From: a virus
Taxonomy: Duplodnaviria > Heunggongvirae > Uroviricota > Caudoviricetes
Virus record (IMG/VR): IMGVR_UViG_2554235127_000006
Length of the DNA stretch: 16,598 nt
Strand: one strand, 5' to 3'
In this document: in pieces, positions 4,021-16,598 of the stretch
How the letters are laid out: the number at the start of each line of letters is the position of its first letter
How positions within the stretch are numbered: position 1 is the stretch's first letter
The notes under the pieces: generated by a model
The model's input: only the letters and a program-made list of their open reading frames with translations
Told to the model about the DNA's origin: nothing
Database searches by the model: none
Program-made: the position numbers and the translations under genes

Positions 4021-4032
4021 CACGCTACCGCC
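4021..4032 (-). promoter_or_regulatory. ops element (GGCGGTAGCGTG) of the JUMPstart sequence in the waaQ operon leader; RfaH recruitment site
   Basis: Plus strand 4021-4032 reads CACGCTACCGCC, the reverse complement of GGCGGTAGCGTG, an exact ops match. It lies about 90 nt upstream of the waaQ start on the transcribed strand. Confidence 0.8.
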
Positions 4033-4383
4033 CCAGGCTCAACAGCTACCTGAATACTGATACCGCACTGATATTGACGCGCTAGTGTATCACTTCTTTC
4101 GCGGCAATCCGACCCGAATGATTTTTAAGCACATTGTTGATTTTCAATAAAGAAATCAATCAAATAAAATCATTAGCAACCATATTCTTTTACTGTTGCT
4201 CTGCGATTCCTTCCTGCACGTACTGCAGAAATCAATGAATCGCATAAAAATACAAAAAAAGTATAGATGTTCAGCAAGAATTGGCGGGTAAATTGCTATT
4301 TAAGTCAAAAACGGGAAAAGTAATGGTAAAGCCACAGCTAAATACATAGAATCCCCAGCACATCCATAAGTCAGCTATTTACT

Positions 4384-13448: not shown

Positions 13449-13492
13449 GTTATCATGGGCTATCATAAAGACGCAACAAAGCGCATGATTAT

Positions 13493-13574: not shown

Positions 13575-14834
13575 ATGCCAAAACTAACAGACATGCAGAT
13601 CCGCGCATGGATTAAGAGCGGAGAGCGATTCGAGGGGCGGGCAGACGGTAACGGTTTATACCTACGTTACCGTGAAGCCGACAAAACCCCCACATGGAGA
13701 TTCCGCTATAAACTCGCAGGGAAGTCCCGCGCCATGCTAATTGGTTCGTATAGCGAGCTATCACTATCAAAGGCCAGAGAGACAGCCAAAGAGCTATCGG
13801 CTCGCGTTGCGCTGGGCTATGACGTTGCAGGAGAGAAGCAGAAGCGCAAAACCGAAGCACTGGCGAAGATGGAAGCAGAGAAGAACGCTATGCGCGTTTC
13901 AGAGCTTGCCGCTGAATACTTTGAGCGTCAGATACTTCCGAGATGGAAACATCCCGATATCCTTCGCCGGAGAATTGATAAGGATATTAACCCCTGCATT
14001 GGGCATATGAAGGTAGAGGACGTTAAGCCACGCCACATTGACGACATGTTGAAAGGTATCGTTGACCGAGGAGCACCAACGATAGCAACAGATGTATTAC
14101 GCTGGACACGCCGTATCTTTGACTACGGGATAAAACGCCACGCTCTGGAGATAAACCCTTGTTCAGCGTTTGAAGTATCTGATGCTGGTGGTAAAGAGGT
14201 TTCCCGCGACCGTTGGCTAACTCGCGATGAGCTTATCAGGCTATTCGAGGCTATGCGCACCGCAAAAGGATTCAGCCGCCAGAACGAACTGACATTTAAG
14301 CTATTGCTGGCACTATGCGTTCGTAAGATGGAGTTATGCGCCGCACGATGGGAAGAGTTTGATTTAGATGGTGCGGTATGGCATTTGCCGGAAGAACGCA
14401 GCAAAAACGGAGACCCTATTGATATACCTCTACCTTCTCCAGCCGTTGAATGGTTGAGAGAACTACACACCTTTTCATGTAATAGCGCATGGGTGCTTCC
14501 AGCCAGGAAGATGCAAAACAGAATGATCCCACATATTCAGGAAAGCACTTTGCCCGTAGCACTGGCTAAGGTTCGCGCCGAAATGCCGGATGTGCCTAAT
14601 TTCACGATTCACGACTTCCGACGCACCGCACGTACTCATTTAGCAGCGTTGGGTGTTGATCCTGTCGTGGCGGAACGATGCCTCAATCATCGCATTAAGG
14701 GCGTAGAGGGGATTTATAACCGCCATCAGTATTTTGATGAGCGTAAAGCAGCACTGGCACAGTGGGCTGATCTGCTGGTGGCACTGGAAAGCGGAAAAGA
14801 CTACAACGTAACGCCTCTCAGAAGGGCGAACTAA
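13575..14834 (+). CDS. Site-specific tyrosine recombinase, P4-type integrase family
   Basis: N-terminus MPKLTDMQIRAWIKSGERFEGRADGNGLYLRYREADKTPTWRFRYKLAGK is typical of the P4-type arm-binding domain. C-terminus has HDFRRTARTH (HxxR) and GIYNRHQY (catalytic Tyr). Track ORF starts at 13455, but the first 40 codons overlap the terminator T-run and repeat cluster, so I place the start at the ATG at 13575. Confidence 0.88.
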   Translation: MPKLTDMQIRAWIKSGERFEGRADGNGLYLRYREADKTPTWRFRYKLAGKSRAMLIGSYSELSLSKARETAKELSARVALGYDVAGEKQKRKTEALAKMEAEKNAMRVSELAAEYFERQILPRWKHPDILRRRIDKDINPCIGHMKVEDVKPRHIDDMLKGIVDRGAPTIATDVLRWTRRIFDYGIKRHALEINPCSAFEVSDAGGKEVSRDRWLTRDELIRLFEAMRTAKGFSRQNELTFKLLLALCVRKMELCAARWEEFDLDGAVWHLPEERSKNGDPIDIPLPSPAVEWLRELHTFSCNSAWVLPARKMQNRMIPHIQESTLPVALAKVRAEMPDVPNFTIHDFRRTARTHLAALGVDPVVAERCLNHRIKGVEGIYNRHQYFDERKAALAQWADLLVALESGKDYNVTPLRRAN

Positions 14835-14842
14835 CTGAATAG

Positions 14843-14905
14843 ATTGAGCCTAGCCCGACGGGGCGAAAAGCGGAAAGCCTTACCGCCTGGCTCAATTCTT
14901 TTTAA
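14843..14905 (+). terminator. Long-range inverted repeat (ATTGAGCC ... GGCTCAAT) followed by TCTTTTT after int; possible terminator or insulator before the cargo gene
   Basis: 8-bp arms at 14843-14850 and 14889-14896 with a 38-nt interior that has its own short GC palindromes, then a T-rich run at 14897-14903. The structure is unusual, so confidence is low. Confidence 0.35.
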
Positions 14906-14928
14906 GGCAAAGCGTAGAAGGTGACGCA

Positions 14929-15810
14929 ATGAGTAAGTTATTTAAGCTCAAAGAATGGCTGACGTTATCGGAAGCCTCAGAGAGGCTATCAGTATTCTTA
15001 GGTGAAAAGGTTTCTGTTGCTGATTGTTTGCAGCTGGCATTGGATAAGCACATAACCATTTCAGCAATTTTTAACGAGAGCCAGCACGCTATCCATGCGA
15101 AGGTAATCACAACGACCCAACGTAAGCAGTTTTCTAAATTCATTATCCGGACAACAGAGGATGGGGCCTATATTGGCCTTATAGGGGAAGATCGCTTTGT
15201 CTCAAACAGTGAATTAGATTTTGAGTATGAAGATATTGAAAGGTACGGTGATGTTTTCACGTTGCGTCATGGGATCTATGACCTGCCTATGCTGGGGGCC
15301 GAAGAATTGGATGTCATGCATCAGCTTGATTTGAACGCTGGAAGAGCGCCTCGGGAATTCTGCAATATGGAGGGGCCATTTTTGATAACTCCATATGGCT
15401 TGGTGAATATCTTAAACCAGTTCAATCCTTGGATGTTAAAGACGAATGATAGCGGCTCACCAGAGTATTACGATAAGGTAAAAAACGAGTTCGTAGATTT
15501 GAGCCATGAAGGCTACCGCGGGTTTCTTTATCCGGCCGATGCTTTGGGCGATTTTGAGCTTGTATTCAGAAGAGAAAACATCGAAAAGTTTGAGCAAGAA
15601 AATTCTGGTGATGGCCAACAATCGCTAAAACTTGATGAGAGCCTGCATGTAATAGGTGCTCTGCTTAACGCCTTAAAAAAAGCTGAACCAGCATCTAAGC
15701 GATGGACGCAAGAGGCGCTAAAGGCGGAGATGATAGATCACGGGGTTAACCTAAGCCCTCGACATCTCGATAAATATTTCTCGGCAGCGAATAAATCTTT
15801 TAAATCATAG
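14929..15810 (+). CDS. Hypothetical protein (293 aa), island cargo; function unknown
   Basis: Uninterrupted 293-codon ORF, MSKLFKLKEWLTLSEASERLSVFLGEKVSVADCLQ...; GAGG-containing purine-rich stretch upstream of the ATG. It looks more AT-rich than the flanking core genes by eye. I recognise no motif; acidic central region; no obvious hydrophobic transmembrane stretch. Confidence 0.7.
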   Translation: MSKLFKLKEWLTLSEASERLSVFLGEKVSVADCLQLALDKHITISAIFNESQHAIHAKVITTTQRKQFSKFIIRTTEDGAYIGLIGEDRFVSNSELDFEYEDIERYGDVFTLRHGIYDLPMLGAEELDVMHQLDLNAGRAPREFCNMEGPFLITPYGLVNILNQFNPWMLKTNDSGSPEYYDKVKNEFVDLSHEGYRGFLYPADALGDFELVFRRENIEKFEQENSGDGQQSLKLDESLHVIGALLNALKKAEPASKRWTQEALKAEMIDHGVNLSPRHLDKYFSAANKSFKS

Positions 15811-15919
15811 AGATAATTTCGCACCGAAAACCCATTTTTCGCTGCGATGACTTAATCCCCCTCCTGAAGCATGCTTCTTGTAACGACGCAACAGCGTCTA
15901 CAAAGGAGTTACGAGAAGC

Positions 15920-16123
15920 ATGGCTACAGACAACATCCCCAACACAGGTTACATCCGCCGCTTTCGCCTGGCTGAATTGCTGGGCGTTAGTGTATCCACC
16001 ATCGACCGTAAAGTAAGAAACGGTTCACTACCACGTCCGGTAAAGCTGGGCGAGAAGATTACCGCCTTTGATGCGGTAGAGATTAACAACTGGCTGGCAG
16101 AACGTCGGGGAAAGGTGGCTTGA
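15920..16123 (+). CDS. alpA: AlpA-family phage/island transcriptional regulator (small HTH, excisionase-like)
   Basis: 67 aa: RFRLAELLGVSVSTIDRKVRNGSLPRPVKLGEKITAFDAVEINNWL fits the AlpA pattern (HTH, then G-x-FP-xP-KLG, then W-x-EI-x-WL). AAGGAG ribosome-binding site precedes the ATG. Confidence 0.85.
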   Translation: MATDNIPNTGYIRRFRLAELLGVSVSTIDRKVRNGSLPRPVKLGEKITAFDAVEINNWLAERRGKVA

Positions 16124-16554
16124 TGAAAAAGAAAAACCGCCCATTACAGGCGGCTAACTCAGATATTCGCACGTCTGATATTACGCCGACCACCAGCCCG
16201 GTACAAGTACCTAGGCGTACCCCAAAGAAACACCGCGCCCGCGTCTATATGCTGCGTACTGGTATAGAGGGATGGACAGAAAATGACATTCTTCGCTACT
16301 GCCGTCTGTCTTCTGGTCGTAACTATGCAACAGAGTTAGAACGCCAGCTTGGAATCACTCTGGAGCGTATCGACGAAAAGAATCCTGATGGTATCGGAAC
16401 ACACCTTCGCTACCGTTTCTCCTGCCGTGGTGATGTTCTGAAAGTGATCACTCATGTTAACCATCTTGCGAACATAAATGATCACAACGGACTTTCTCAG
16501 CAGGAAATTGCCGACATTCTGAAACTCTACCCGGACGCGTTTAACGCCGCCTAA
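16120..16554 (+). CDS. Hypothetical protein (144 aa) translationally coupled to alpA; function unknown
   Basis: Start ATG overlaps the alpA stop (ATGA at 16120-16123). Basic, Pro/Thr-rich N-terminus (PVQVPRRTPKKHRAR) then a predicted globular region. Not recognised. Confidence 0.6.
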   Translation: MMKKKNRPLQAANSDIRTSDITPTTSPVQVPRRTPKKHRARVYMLRTGIEGWTENDILRYCRLSSGRNYATELERQLGITLERIDEKNPDGIGTHLRYRFSCRGDVLKVITHVNHLANINDHNGLSQQEIADILKLYPDAFNAA

Positions 16555-16566
16555 CGGAGACTGAAA

Positions 16567-16598
16567 ATGAACATCGAAAAAAGCAGATTAATTTCTGA
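16567..16598 (+). CDS. 5' end of a further island gene (partial, only about 10 codons: MNIEKSRLIS...)
   Basis: ATG at 16567 preceded by GGAG at 16556-16559; same orientation as alpA and the 144-aa ORF. Too short to classify. Confidence 0.3.
   Translation, partial: MNIEKSRLIS

Follow-up and report, generated by a model that had tools for sequence, protein, structure and literature searches.

The right end of the 16,598-nucleotide (nt) viral record IMGVR_UViG_2554235127_000006, referred to here at its full length as the window, carries the left arm (left 3 kb) of a genomic island inserted after yicC, in which alpA, the gene of an AlpA-family regulator and excisionase, is followed directly by a gene for a protein of 143 amino acids (aa). 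Our analysis points to this downstream gene as the first after alpA in the early operon of phage satellites of the EcCIMP1 type, encoding a winged-helix protein and carrying a putative antisense-RNA gate within its own first ~60 nt, and we give this explanation, taken as a whole, about an even chance of being correct.

The alpA product matches the Pfam family Phage_AlpA (PF05930) with 34.5 bits against a gathering score of 21 (E 1.9e-8). Its TGA stop and the ATG of the downstream gene have one base in common (TGATG, in the context gcTTGATGaaa), and a Shine-Dalgarno-like AGGTGG sits inside the last alpA codons, 4 nt before the overlap. An initial annotation of this stretch had read the overlap as a shared ATGA at 16120-16123 and the product as 144 aa long; an overlap is indeed present, but the bases there read TTGA and the shared part is a single base. 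The 144-aa reading requires the TTG at 16120 as start, a codon at which homologues have GTA or CTG, while the ATG is common to all of them and is also where the RefSeq annotation begins, and the product is therefore 143 aa. No sigma-70-like promoter and no plus-strand terminator were found between the two genes in a consensus scan, so that the overlap, the ribosome-binding site within the upstream open reading frame (ORF) and the uninterrupted intergenic junction together describe a translationally coupled pair. From this architecture the 143-aa gene is predicted to be transcribed with alpA, and ribosomes ending alpA should be able to restart on its ATG; the co-translation originally proposed is thereby upheld at the level of sequence, and the same pair recurs from island to island. 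On the plus strand, RNA folding at the junction is negligible in an RNAalifold consensus (-2.2 kcal/mol) and ordinary in a single-sequence fold (z -0.7), and because of these two results a stem sequestering the AUG in the window's own fold is not claimed.

In order to place the junction in context we examined 32 species-level Enterobacterales loci, 10 loci with distant homologues, some as low as ~25-30 % in identity and Zobellella among them, taken from genomes and metagenomes, and the plasmid and EcCIMP1 loci; loci are cited by L numbers. A small ORF on the same strand lies directly upstream of the 143-aa gene in 42 of the 42 related loci examined; all 38 that were scanned match PF05930 (E <= 0.001) and the 4 further loci carry a precomputed match to it. 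The overlap takes the one-base form T(A/G)ATG in ~31 of 34 Enterobacterales loci, with one ATGA and one TAAATG, and in distant relatives the two genes overlap by one base or stand 2-22 nt apart. This arrangement is far beyond chance, and the co-occurrence on which the initial annotation had staked its proposal amounts to 100 %. The replication genes downstream in the distant relatives are non-homologous (D5_N/Pox_D5, TOPRIM-DUF927, YagK_YfjJ_C/REP), and adjacency to alpA is therefore the sole invariant context of the family.

The 5' end of the 143-aa gene was scrutinised because its nucleotide conservation is high though it codes for a disordered tail. Among 35 distinct homologous coding sequences, synonymous codon identity, measured as the proportion of pairs sharing an amino acid that also share its codon, reaches 87-91 % over codons 1-20 compared with 39-62 % elsewhere and 58 % overall, and amino-acid identity is nonetheless lowest in the tail. 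The consensus scan, which covered 14800-16598, returned one terminator-like site, on the minus strand and ending at the start codon of the 143-aa gene. Its hairpin and U-run persist through at least 8 differing versions of the sequence. The commonest stem is CCGCC/GGCGG; in loci L021 and L033 two compensating changes give CCACC/GGTGG and replace two amino acids, and six loci have a re-registered CCCGC/GCGGG encoding a different peptide. In L019 the stem includes a U.G pair on the minus strand, where the plus strand would have a mismatched C.A, and the distant homologues L034, L035, L036, L037 and L048, whose tails are unrelated, have a hairpin and U-run at the same minus-strand place. The hairpin is stabler as minus-strand RNA in 26 of 28 enterobacterial sequences (mean -11.7 versus -8.0 kcal/mol) and in 12 of 12 representative versions that include the distant ones (for example -19.7 versus -7.3, -22.9 versus -11.4 and -10.7 versus 0 kcal/mol). 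Our terminator filter was passed by 32 of the 35 homologues as against ~14 of ~518 other ORFs of the same loci (~3 %), and random synonymous re-coding retained the terminator in 4-22 % of cases overall, with ~20 % for the T1 and T2 tails and 4-7 % for the T3 tail.

On the minus strand, 27 of 28 sequences have a -10-like TAnnAT hexamer (TAATAT, TAACAT, TATTAT, TACTAT or TAGAAT) that precedes the stem by 24-26 nt, and L028, the sole sequence without it, has lost the hairpin too. The conserved tail residues K-K-N-R-P...Q-A-A, D19, T21 and Q28 coincide with the U-run, stem, -10 and -35, with Q28 always CAA in the T1 group, and the conservation of the basic tail seems largely a side effect of a nucleic-acid element encoded opposite to it. 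From the suppression of synonymous change, the conserved minus-strand terminator and the -10-like box we therefore predict a cis-antisense RNA of ~45-50 nt. No Rfam family matches the element, and the literature on antisense RNA with AlpA and on int-alpA yielded nothing relevant. Another target for the 5' part of the RNA was sought within the island and only the cis site was found. Rfam places no C4, isrK or c4-a1b1 element in the 143-aa gene itself, which thus gives no sign of P4-type CI/C4 RNA immunity acting inside it.

Several observations weigh against such an RNA. When the commonest tail is re-coded synonymously a terminator-like hairpin survives in ~20 % of cases, and part of the terminator signal therefore comes from the amino-acid sequence; covariation within the alignment is modest (3 pairs and 6 cells); and the hairpin was not found in homologues L039, L046 and L049. 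Least secure is the promoter: the window's antisense promoter fits only 7 of 12 consensus positions, below the scan threshold, a TTG-type -35 occurs in only part of the family and is not conserved in half, and no clear antisense promoter was seen in the most distant homologues. In an alternative account there is no antisense RNA and the 5' conservation derives from the protein tail, from translation initiation with its A-rich early codons and from recombination at the junction, the hairpin and U-run being a by-product. We regard this as rather unlikely. The re-coding result, the weak promoter match, the position of the junction at a recombination break-point and its ordinary plus-strand fold all agree with it, but it does not explain why at least eight versions with different tails keep the hairpin and U-run in place, why G.U pairs favour the minus strand, why the synonymous suppression extends to codon 20, past any initiation effect, or why the -10 and the stem were lost together in L028.

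Turning to the protein, there is no usable match to it in Pfam, NCBIfam 20.0, PHROGs or PADLOC, nor, with its single sequence or with a profile, among the sequences of the PDB, and relatives at 55-89 % identity likewise match no NCBIfam 20.0 model. Proteins 89-94 % identical to it are named 'PM1773 family protein' in recent RefSeq annotations, a name that carries no function and on which the literature gave nothing relevant. Membership of the PadR, MarR or ArsR families is not indicated by the searches (MarR_2 at E 0.11 over 20 residues only; best PDB profile hit at E 0.79), nor is that of HTH_91 (PF22324), which the window protein reaches with 15.3 bits and E 0.017 against a gathering score of 27 bits and which matches weakly in 7 of 41 family members (best E 2.8e-4). 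A likeness to the head-binding domain of the P22 tailspike (E 0.4-0.09) covers the helix-loop region of a different fold and was judged to be chance.

An AlphaFold2 model built from a 38-sequence alignment has a mean predicted local distance difference test score (pLDDT) of 85, with 91-97 in the core, and a topology of H-b-H-H-b-b-H-H. Foldseek agrees with a winged-helix fold, and the order of elements in this confident model (H1-b1-H2-turn-H3-b2-wing-b3) together with its structural neighbours identifies the predicted domain as a winged helix-turn-helix. The model resembles the winged-helix DNA-binding dimers of the PadR, MarR and RTP type in having H1-b1-H2-H3-b2-b3 followed by a long C-terminal helix. 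The family carries the signatures KK-x-RA, G-x-TEN-x-IL, LSSGRNY, ELER and NPDGIG-x-H-x-RYR, and the tail of the window protein (residues 1-33) has 4 prolines and an isoelectric point (pI) of 11.6. The initial annotation had described a basic, proline-rich N-terminal tail, RRTPKKHRAR, ahead of an unrecognised globular domain. That motif is present, though its PKKHRAR part falls in helix 1 and only residues 1-33 are disordered, and while no family with a defined role matches the domain, the model resolves it as a winged helix-turn-helix.

On this modelling we regard the protein as a new winged-helix family, lacking a Pfam model and specific to phage satellites. It probably dimerises through its two C-terminal helices, probably uses the winged helix together with its basic N-terminal arm to bind DNA, and probably regulates the early programme of the satellite, either by feedback on the operon or by control of the Bro and replication genes. 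Some features sit less easily with such a role: Foldseek E-values are >= 0.1, and the fold class alone is therefore established; the core has a nearly neutral pI of 8.8; neither the wing tip (NPDGIG) nor the recognition helix (ATELERQL) is conspicuously basic; and no candidate operator shared across AlpA clades was seen upstream of alpA.

The family comprises 597 homologue clusters and is under strong purifying selection in its core. An exhaustive profile search, clustered at 50 % identity, gave only 99 clusters, a good many of which are fragments, with no fusions and no annotated relatives, and cluster look-ups yielded no names. Of 5426 complete E. coli genomes 647 (12 %) carry the gene, and the family is narrow, being found mostly in Enterobacterales and in some other Gammaproteobacteria. 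Copies of 66-85 % identity, in islands and among neighbours of the enterobacterial type, also occur in L011, labelled Chryseobacterium sp., and in L021, a metagenome-assembled genome labelled Paenochrobactrum, and these labels probably reflect contamination or mis-binning and not true host range.

The evolutionary behaviour of the gene differs from that of its upstream neighbour. Copies of the 143-aa protein that are 85-94 % identical follow three AlpA clades whose mutual identity is 20-36 %, and near-identical copies also stand beside unrelated integrases (~28 % identity). The divergence of the protein correlates with that of the primase (Spearman rho 0.74) and of AntA (0.63) but not with that of AlpA (-0.13) or the integrase (0.06), while integrase and AlpA correlate with each other (0.64). 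In nucleotide alignments between islands with different int-alpA cassettes identity starts ~18 nt before the alpA stop, and the cassette has therefore been exchanged precisely at this junction, which marks the exact exchange point of integration cassettes between satellites. The last five residues of AlpA, R-G-E/K-V-A, and its last ~18 nt are conserved across otherwise divergent AlpA clades because their codons form the GAGGTG ribosome-binding site of the next gene, and the R-G-E-V-A tail is missing in distant loci. By these comparisons the 143-aa gene appears as a member of the anti-repressor and replication backbone, and the idea that alpA and its neighbour form a two-gene module of partners finds no support in them, there being no sign of co-evolution between the two.

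Other functions were weighed. One is that of a replication accessory, a winged-helix protein binding the origin or loading the primase in the manner of RepA or RTP, which we hold to be improbable. The correlation with the primase, the presence of RTP among the fold matches and an operon that ends with the primase all speak for it; however, the distant homologues precede non-homologous replicases (P4 alpha-type D5_N/Pox_D5, TOPRIM-DUF927, YagK_YfjJ_C/REP_ORF2-G2P) and stay beside alpA rather than beside a replicase or origin, and the primase correlation may merely reflect the shared backbone. The chances also seem low for a factor directed at helper or host, in which the first-expressed product would bind helper DNA or protein for interference, superinfection immunity or derepression, perhaps together with AntA. 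Most enterobacterial loci have antA next to the gene, the two diverge in parallel, and satellite winged-helix or Bro-network proteins such as CapR of the phage-inducible chromosomal island-like element PLE repress helper genes (PMC10111431), but many loci lack antA, the protein is highly conserved across hosts whose helpers must differ, and no homologue was found in 50,697 phage records.

A complex of the 143-aa protein with AlpA, as co-factor of excision or of AlpA-dependent activation, is in our view quite improbable. The invariable adjacency and the translational coupling would favour equimolar synthesis of the two proteins, and the common C-terminus of otherwise divergent AlpA clades could be taken in its favour, but the latter is explained by the embedded ribosome-binding site, and the absence of co-divergence with AlpA or the integrase, with near-identical copies behind very different AlpAs, tells against a dedicated partner of AlpA or a co-factor of excision; the protein is probably not an excision co-factor specific to AlpA. 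That the winged helix binds RNA (the antisense RNA, the int-alpA RNA or C4/isrK) and not DNA is highly improbable, as the match to eS10 scores no better than many DNA-binding winged helices and C4/isrK is absent from ~40 % of loci with the gene.

We propose that the predicted antisense RNA, in which a single-stranded 5' part of ~20 nt, downstream of the -10 box, leads into an intrinsic terminator that stops at the start codon, would pair with codons ~2-17 and keep the 143-aa gene from being translated. Everything downstream of alpA would be shut as well, by the loss of coupling and perhaps also by Rho polarity, so that leaky transcription of alpA would fail to fire the satellite and the RNA would set a threshold for AlpA-driven induction. 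The protein, once made, would act as a dimeric DNA-binding regulator of the early programme. It counts against this explanation that the satellite EcCICFT073 works without the 143-aa gene. A bolder version, which we offer tentatively and consider unlikely, is that the 5' end is the gene for an undescribed cis-antisense RNA that would be the long-sought negative regulator, or immunity, of many Gram-negative satellites, holding the AlpA-driven operon closed at the junction of alpA with the next gene for as long as helper-induced transcription does not override it; the first effector to be set free would be the winged-helix protein, whose tail would have arisen mainly as a coding spacer in which the RNA gene is lodged. 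The coupled junction, with the predicted antisense cassette inside it, represents a new variation on the immunity logic known from phages and satellites.

The closest characterised relative is EcCIMP1 of E. coli MP1, a verified PICI (phage-inducible chromosomal island) which phage Kapi1 excises and transfers and for which alpA is required (PMC11773190). Its protein EcCIMP1_004 (WP_000412531.1), the hypothetical protein after alpA (EcCIMP1_003), is 94 % identical to the window protein over all 143 residues. The two islands share the one-base overlap with alpA and the downstream antA, DUF4222, ash/Icd-like, primase and PerC genes, and differ in AlpA (36 % identical), in the integrase and in the attachment site, which is tRNA-Thr/proA in EcCIMP1 and yicC here; helper-dependent induction, packaging and transfer have been demonstrated for EcCIMP1 only. 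In EcCIMP1 (L045, 27223-27857) the published alpA deletion abolishes both excision and transfer, a phenotype that may be partly polar because translation of the 143-aa protein is coupled to the deleted gene.

The reference Gram-negative PICI, EcCICFT073, has an AlpA that activates its own operon including the ORF after AlpA (PMC6092414). Like the window island it has int, alpA, a Bro-type gene and Icd-like, DUF4222, primase and PerC genes in one orientation, but a Bro-N-like ORF follows alpA and there is no homologue of the 143-aa protein, for which reason an equation of the 143-aa gene with 'ORF3' of EcCICFT073, by which it could have been linked to the experiments made with that satellite, was rejected. 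Within this Bro-N-like ORF, ~300 nt past alpA (L044, 12016-12043, minus strand), we observed a strong terminator-like hairpin of 12 pairs with a U-run. It may be that satellites of this kind generally have antisense transcription running into whichever gene follows alpA.

In satellite P4 the AlpA homologue vis (ORF88) heads the early operon and is coupled to eta, the translation of which decides between read-through and termination mediated by the CI RNA (PMC10111431). The window island is similar in having a coupled AlpA homologue, and where P4 uses a small RNA as immunity factor the island has C4/isrK downstream. Differences are that P4 lacks a 143-aa homologue, for which we searched and to which there is no P4 equivalent, that eta is a Bro-network protein, that the CI/seqA-type RNAs of window-type islands lie ~1.9 kb downstream in the Icd-like gene, and that the RNA proposed here, unlike P4 CI, would be a true cis-antisense transcript with its own terminator.

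The immI region of phage P22 offers a further parallel. There the promoter Pant is followed by arc and ant together with the antisense sar RNA, a short transcript from a promoter inside the operon that terminates at the upstream gene junction and limits expression; Arc is a ribbon-helix-helix protein and sar covers the ribosome-binding site of ant. Both systems place the gene of a small DNA-binding regulator before that of an anti-repressor, with a short antisense RNA, but Arc is not a winged helix, the proposed RNA covers the first codons of the regulator itself and there is no sequence similarity.

The complete island can be read from a 97.9 %-identical stretch in E. coli E7 (NZ_CP104523.1, locus L001, whose coordinates equal those of the window +2601), in which it spans ~13 kb from yicC to yicG and encodes in order the integrase, a 293-aa hypothetical protein, alpA, the 143-aa gene, antA/AntB, DUF4222, an Icd-like protein, five small ORFs, a P4-family primase and PerC, all co-oriented and most overlapping by 4-14 nt. 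Gram-negative PICIs have a layout of four zones, for integration, Bro, replication and late functions (PMC10111431), and the organisation of this island is the same; with ~10-15 kb, co-oriented int, alpA and primase, no structural or lysis module and core-gene flanks, the E7 island has the gene content of such a PICI. In the window the integrase starts at 13575 as in RefSeq, with the longest ORF beginning at 13455, and the int-alpA RNA motif directly after its stop recurs after int in most related loci with any integrase type. The 293-aa ORF matches nothing in Pfam, NCBIfam, PHROG or PADLOC and has homologues (49-62 % identity) in three related loci only. In other loci the slot is filled by unrelated genes, one of them for a DUF6387 protein, so that homology among these cargo genes was rejected; the slot looks like a variable cargo hotspot, possibly for defence. 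Past the 143-aa gene, antA begins 12 nt after its stop and has its own GGAG.

Inside the Icd-like gene of L001, at 20588-20813, Rfam identifies isrK, C4 antisense RNA and c4-a1b1 target motifs, ~1.4 kb past the right end of the window and ~1.9 kb downstream of the 143-aa gene. This set is a P1/P4-type RNA immunity module and is present in ~20 of 33 enterobacterial loci with the 143-aa gene. Seven 'plasmid' records also hold the gene, the circular ones spanning 12-22 kb. L041 (NZ_CP148430.1) is a 12,152-bp circle with exactly the gene set of the island, and the small non-mobilizable 'plasmids' of PLSDB (12,152 bp, others 17-22 kb) correspond to the complete circular island with integrase, 143-aa gene, antA, primase and PerC; these records are probably excised replicating satellites assembled as plasmids. 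Elsewhere in the window, at 4021-4059 on the minus strand, there is a JUMPstart RNA element (RF01707, 55 bits) upstream of the rfaQ/waaQ lipopolysaccharide-core operon, an expected feature of the core genome.

Table 1 Features of the alpA junction and its surroundings, in window coordinates unless stated otherwise
Feature	Position	Strand	Remarks
143-aa gene (RefSeq 'PM1773 family protein')	16123..16554	+	Tail 1-33, winged helix-turn-helix 34-99, helices 102-118 and 126-134
Elements of the AlphaFold2 model	residues 1-134		1-33 disordered; helix 35-45; one-residue strand 51; helix 53-59; helix 68-76; hairpin 80-86/93-99; helix 102-118; helix 126-134
Coupling junction	16113..16125	+	Shine-Dalgarno-like AGGTGG 16113-16118; alpA stop TGA 16121-16123; ATG 16123-16125
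alpA, 67 aa, AlpA-family helix-turn-helix regulator/excisionase	15920..16123	+	PF05930; final codons hold the ribosome-binding site of the next gene
Predicted cis-antisense RNA, ~45-50 nt, ends inferred	16127..16171	-	Promoter-terminator geometry; complementary to codons ~2-17
Intrinsic-terminator-like element	16125..16155	-	Stem-loop AGCCGCCTGTAATGGGCGGTT (16155 to 16135), then TTTCTTTTTC (16134 to 16125)
-10-like hexamer TAATAT of putative antisense promoter	16178..16183 (16183 to 16178)	-	
-35-like hexamer TTGTAC	16206 to 16201	-	17-nt spacer to -10
P4-type tyrosine integrase	13575..14834	+	Pfam Arm-DNA-bind_3, Phage_int_M, Phage_integrase; RefSeq coding sequence L001 16176-17435
int-alpA RNA motif (Rfam RF02996)	14843..14908	+	69.5 bits against gathering score 35.8
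293-aa ORF, variable cargo slot between int and alpA	14929..15810	+	Unrelated genes in slot elsewhere
antA/AntB (Bro-network) anti-repressor gene, start only	16567..16598	+	Truncated by window end; RefSeq coding sequence L001 19168-20001

No global repressor is known for Gram-negative PICIs, in which AlpA is an activator (PMC6092414). These islands are widespread, the 143-aa gene alone occurring in 12 % of complete E. coli genomes, and the alpA-linked protein and the antisense RNA at the junction constitute testable candidates for the missing layer of control. Deletions of alpA in islands of the EcCIMP1 type may be polar on the coupled 143-aa gene, so that phenotypes ascribed to AlpA may be shared between the two. 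If the ordinary part of the explanation alone is true what is left is nevertheless a new and so far unnamed family of winged-helix proteins peculiar to phage satellites, and the interest would be higher if the antisense RNA is indeed the missing negative control of Gram-negative PICIs.

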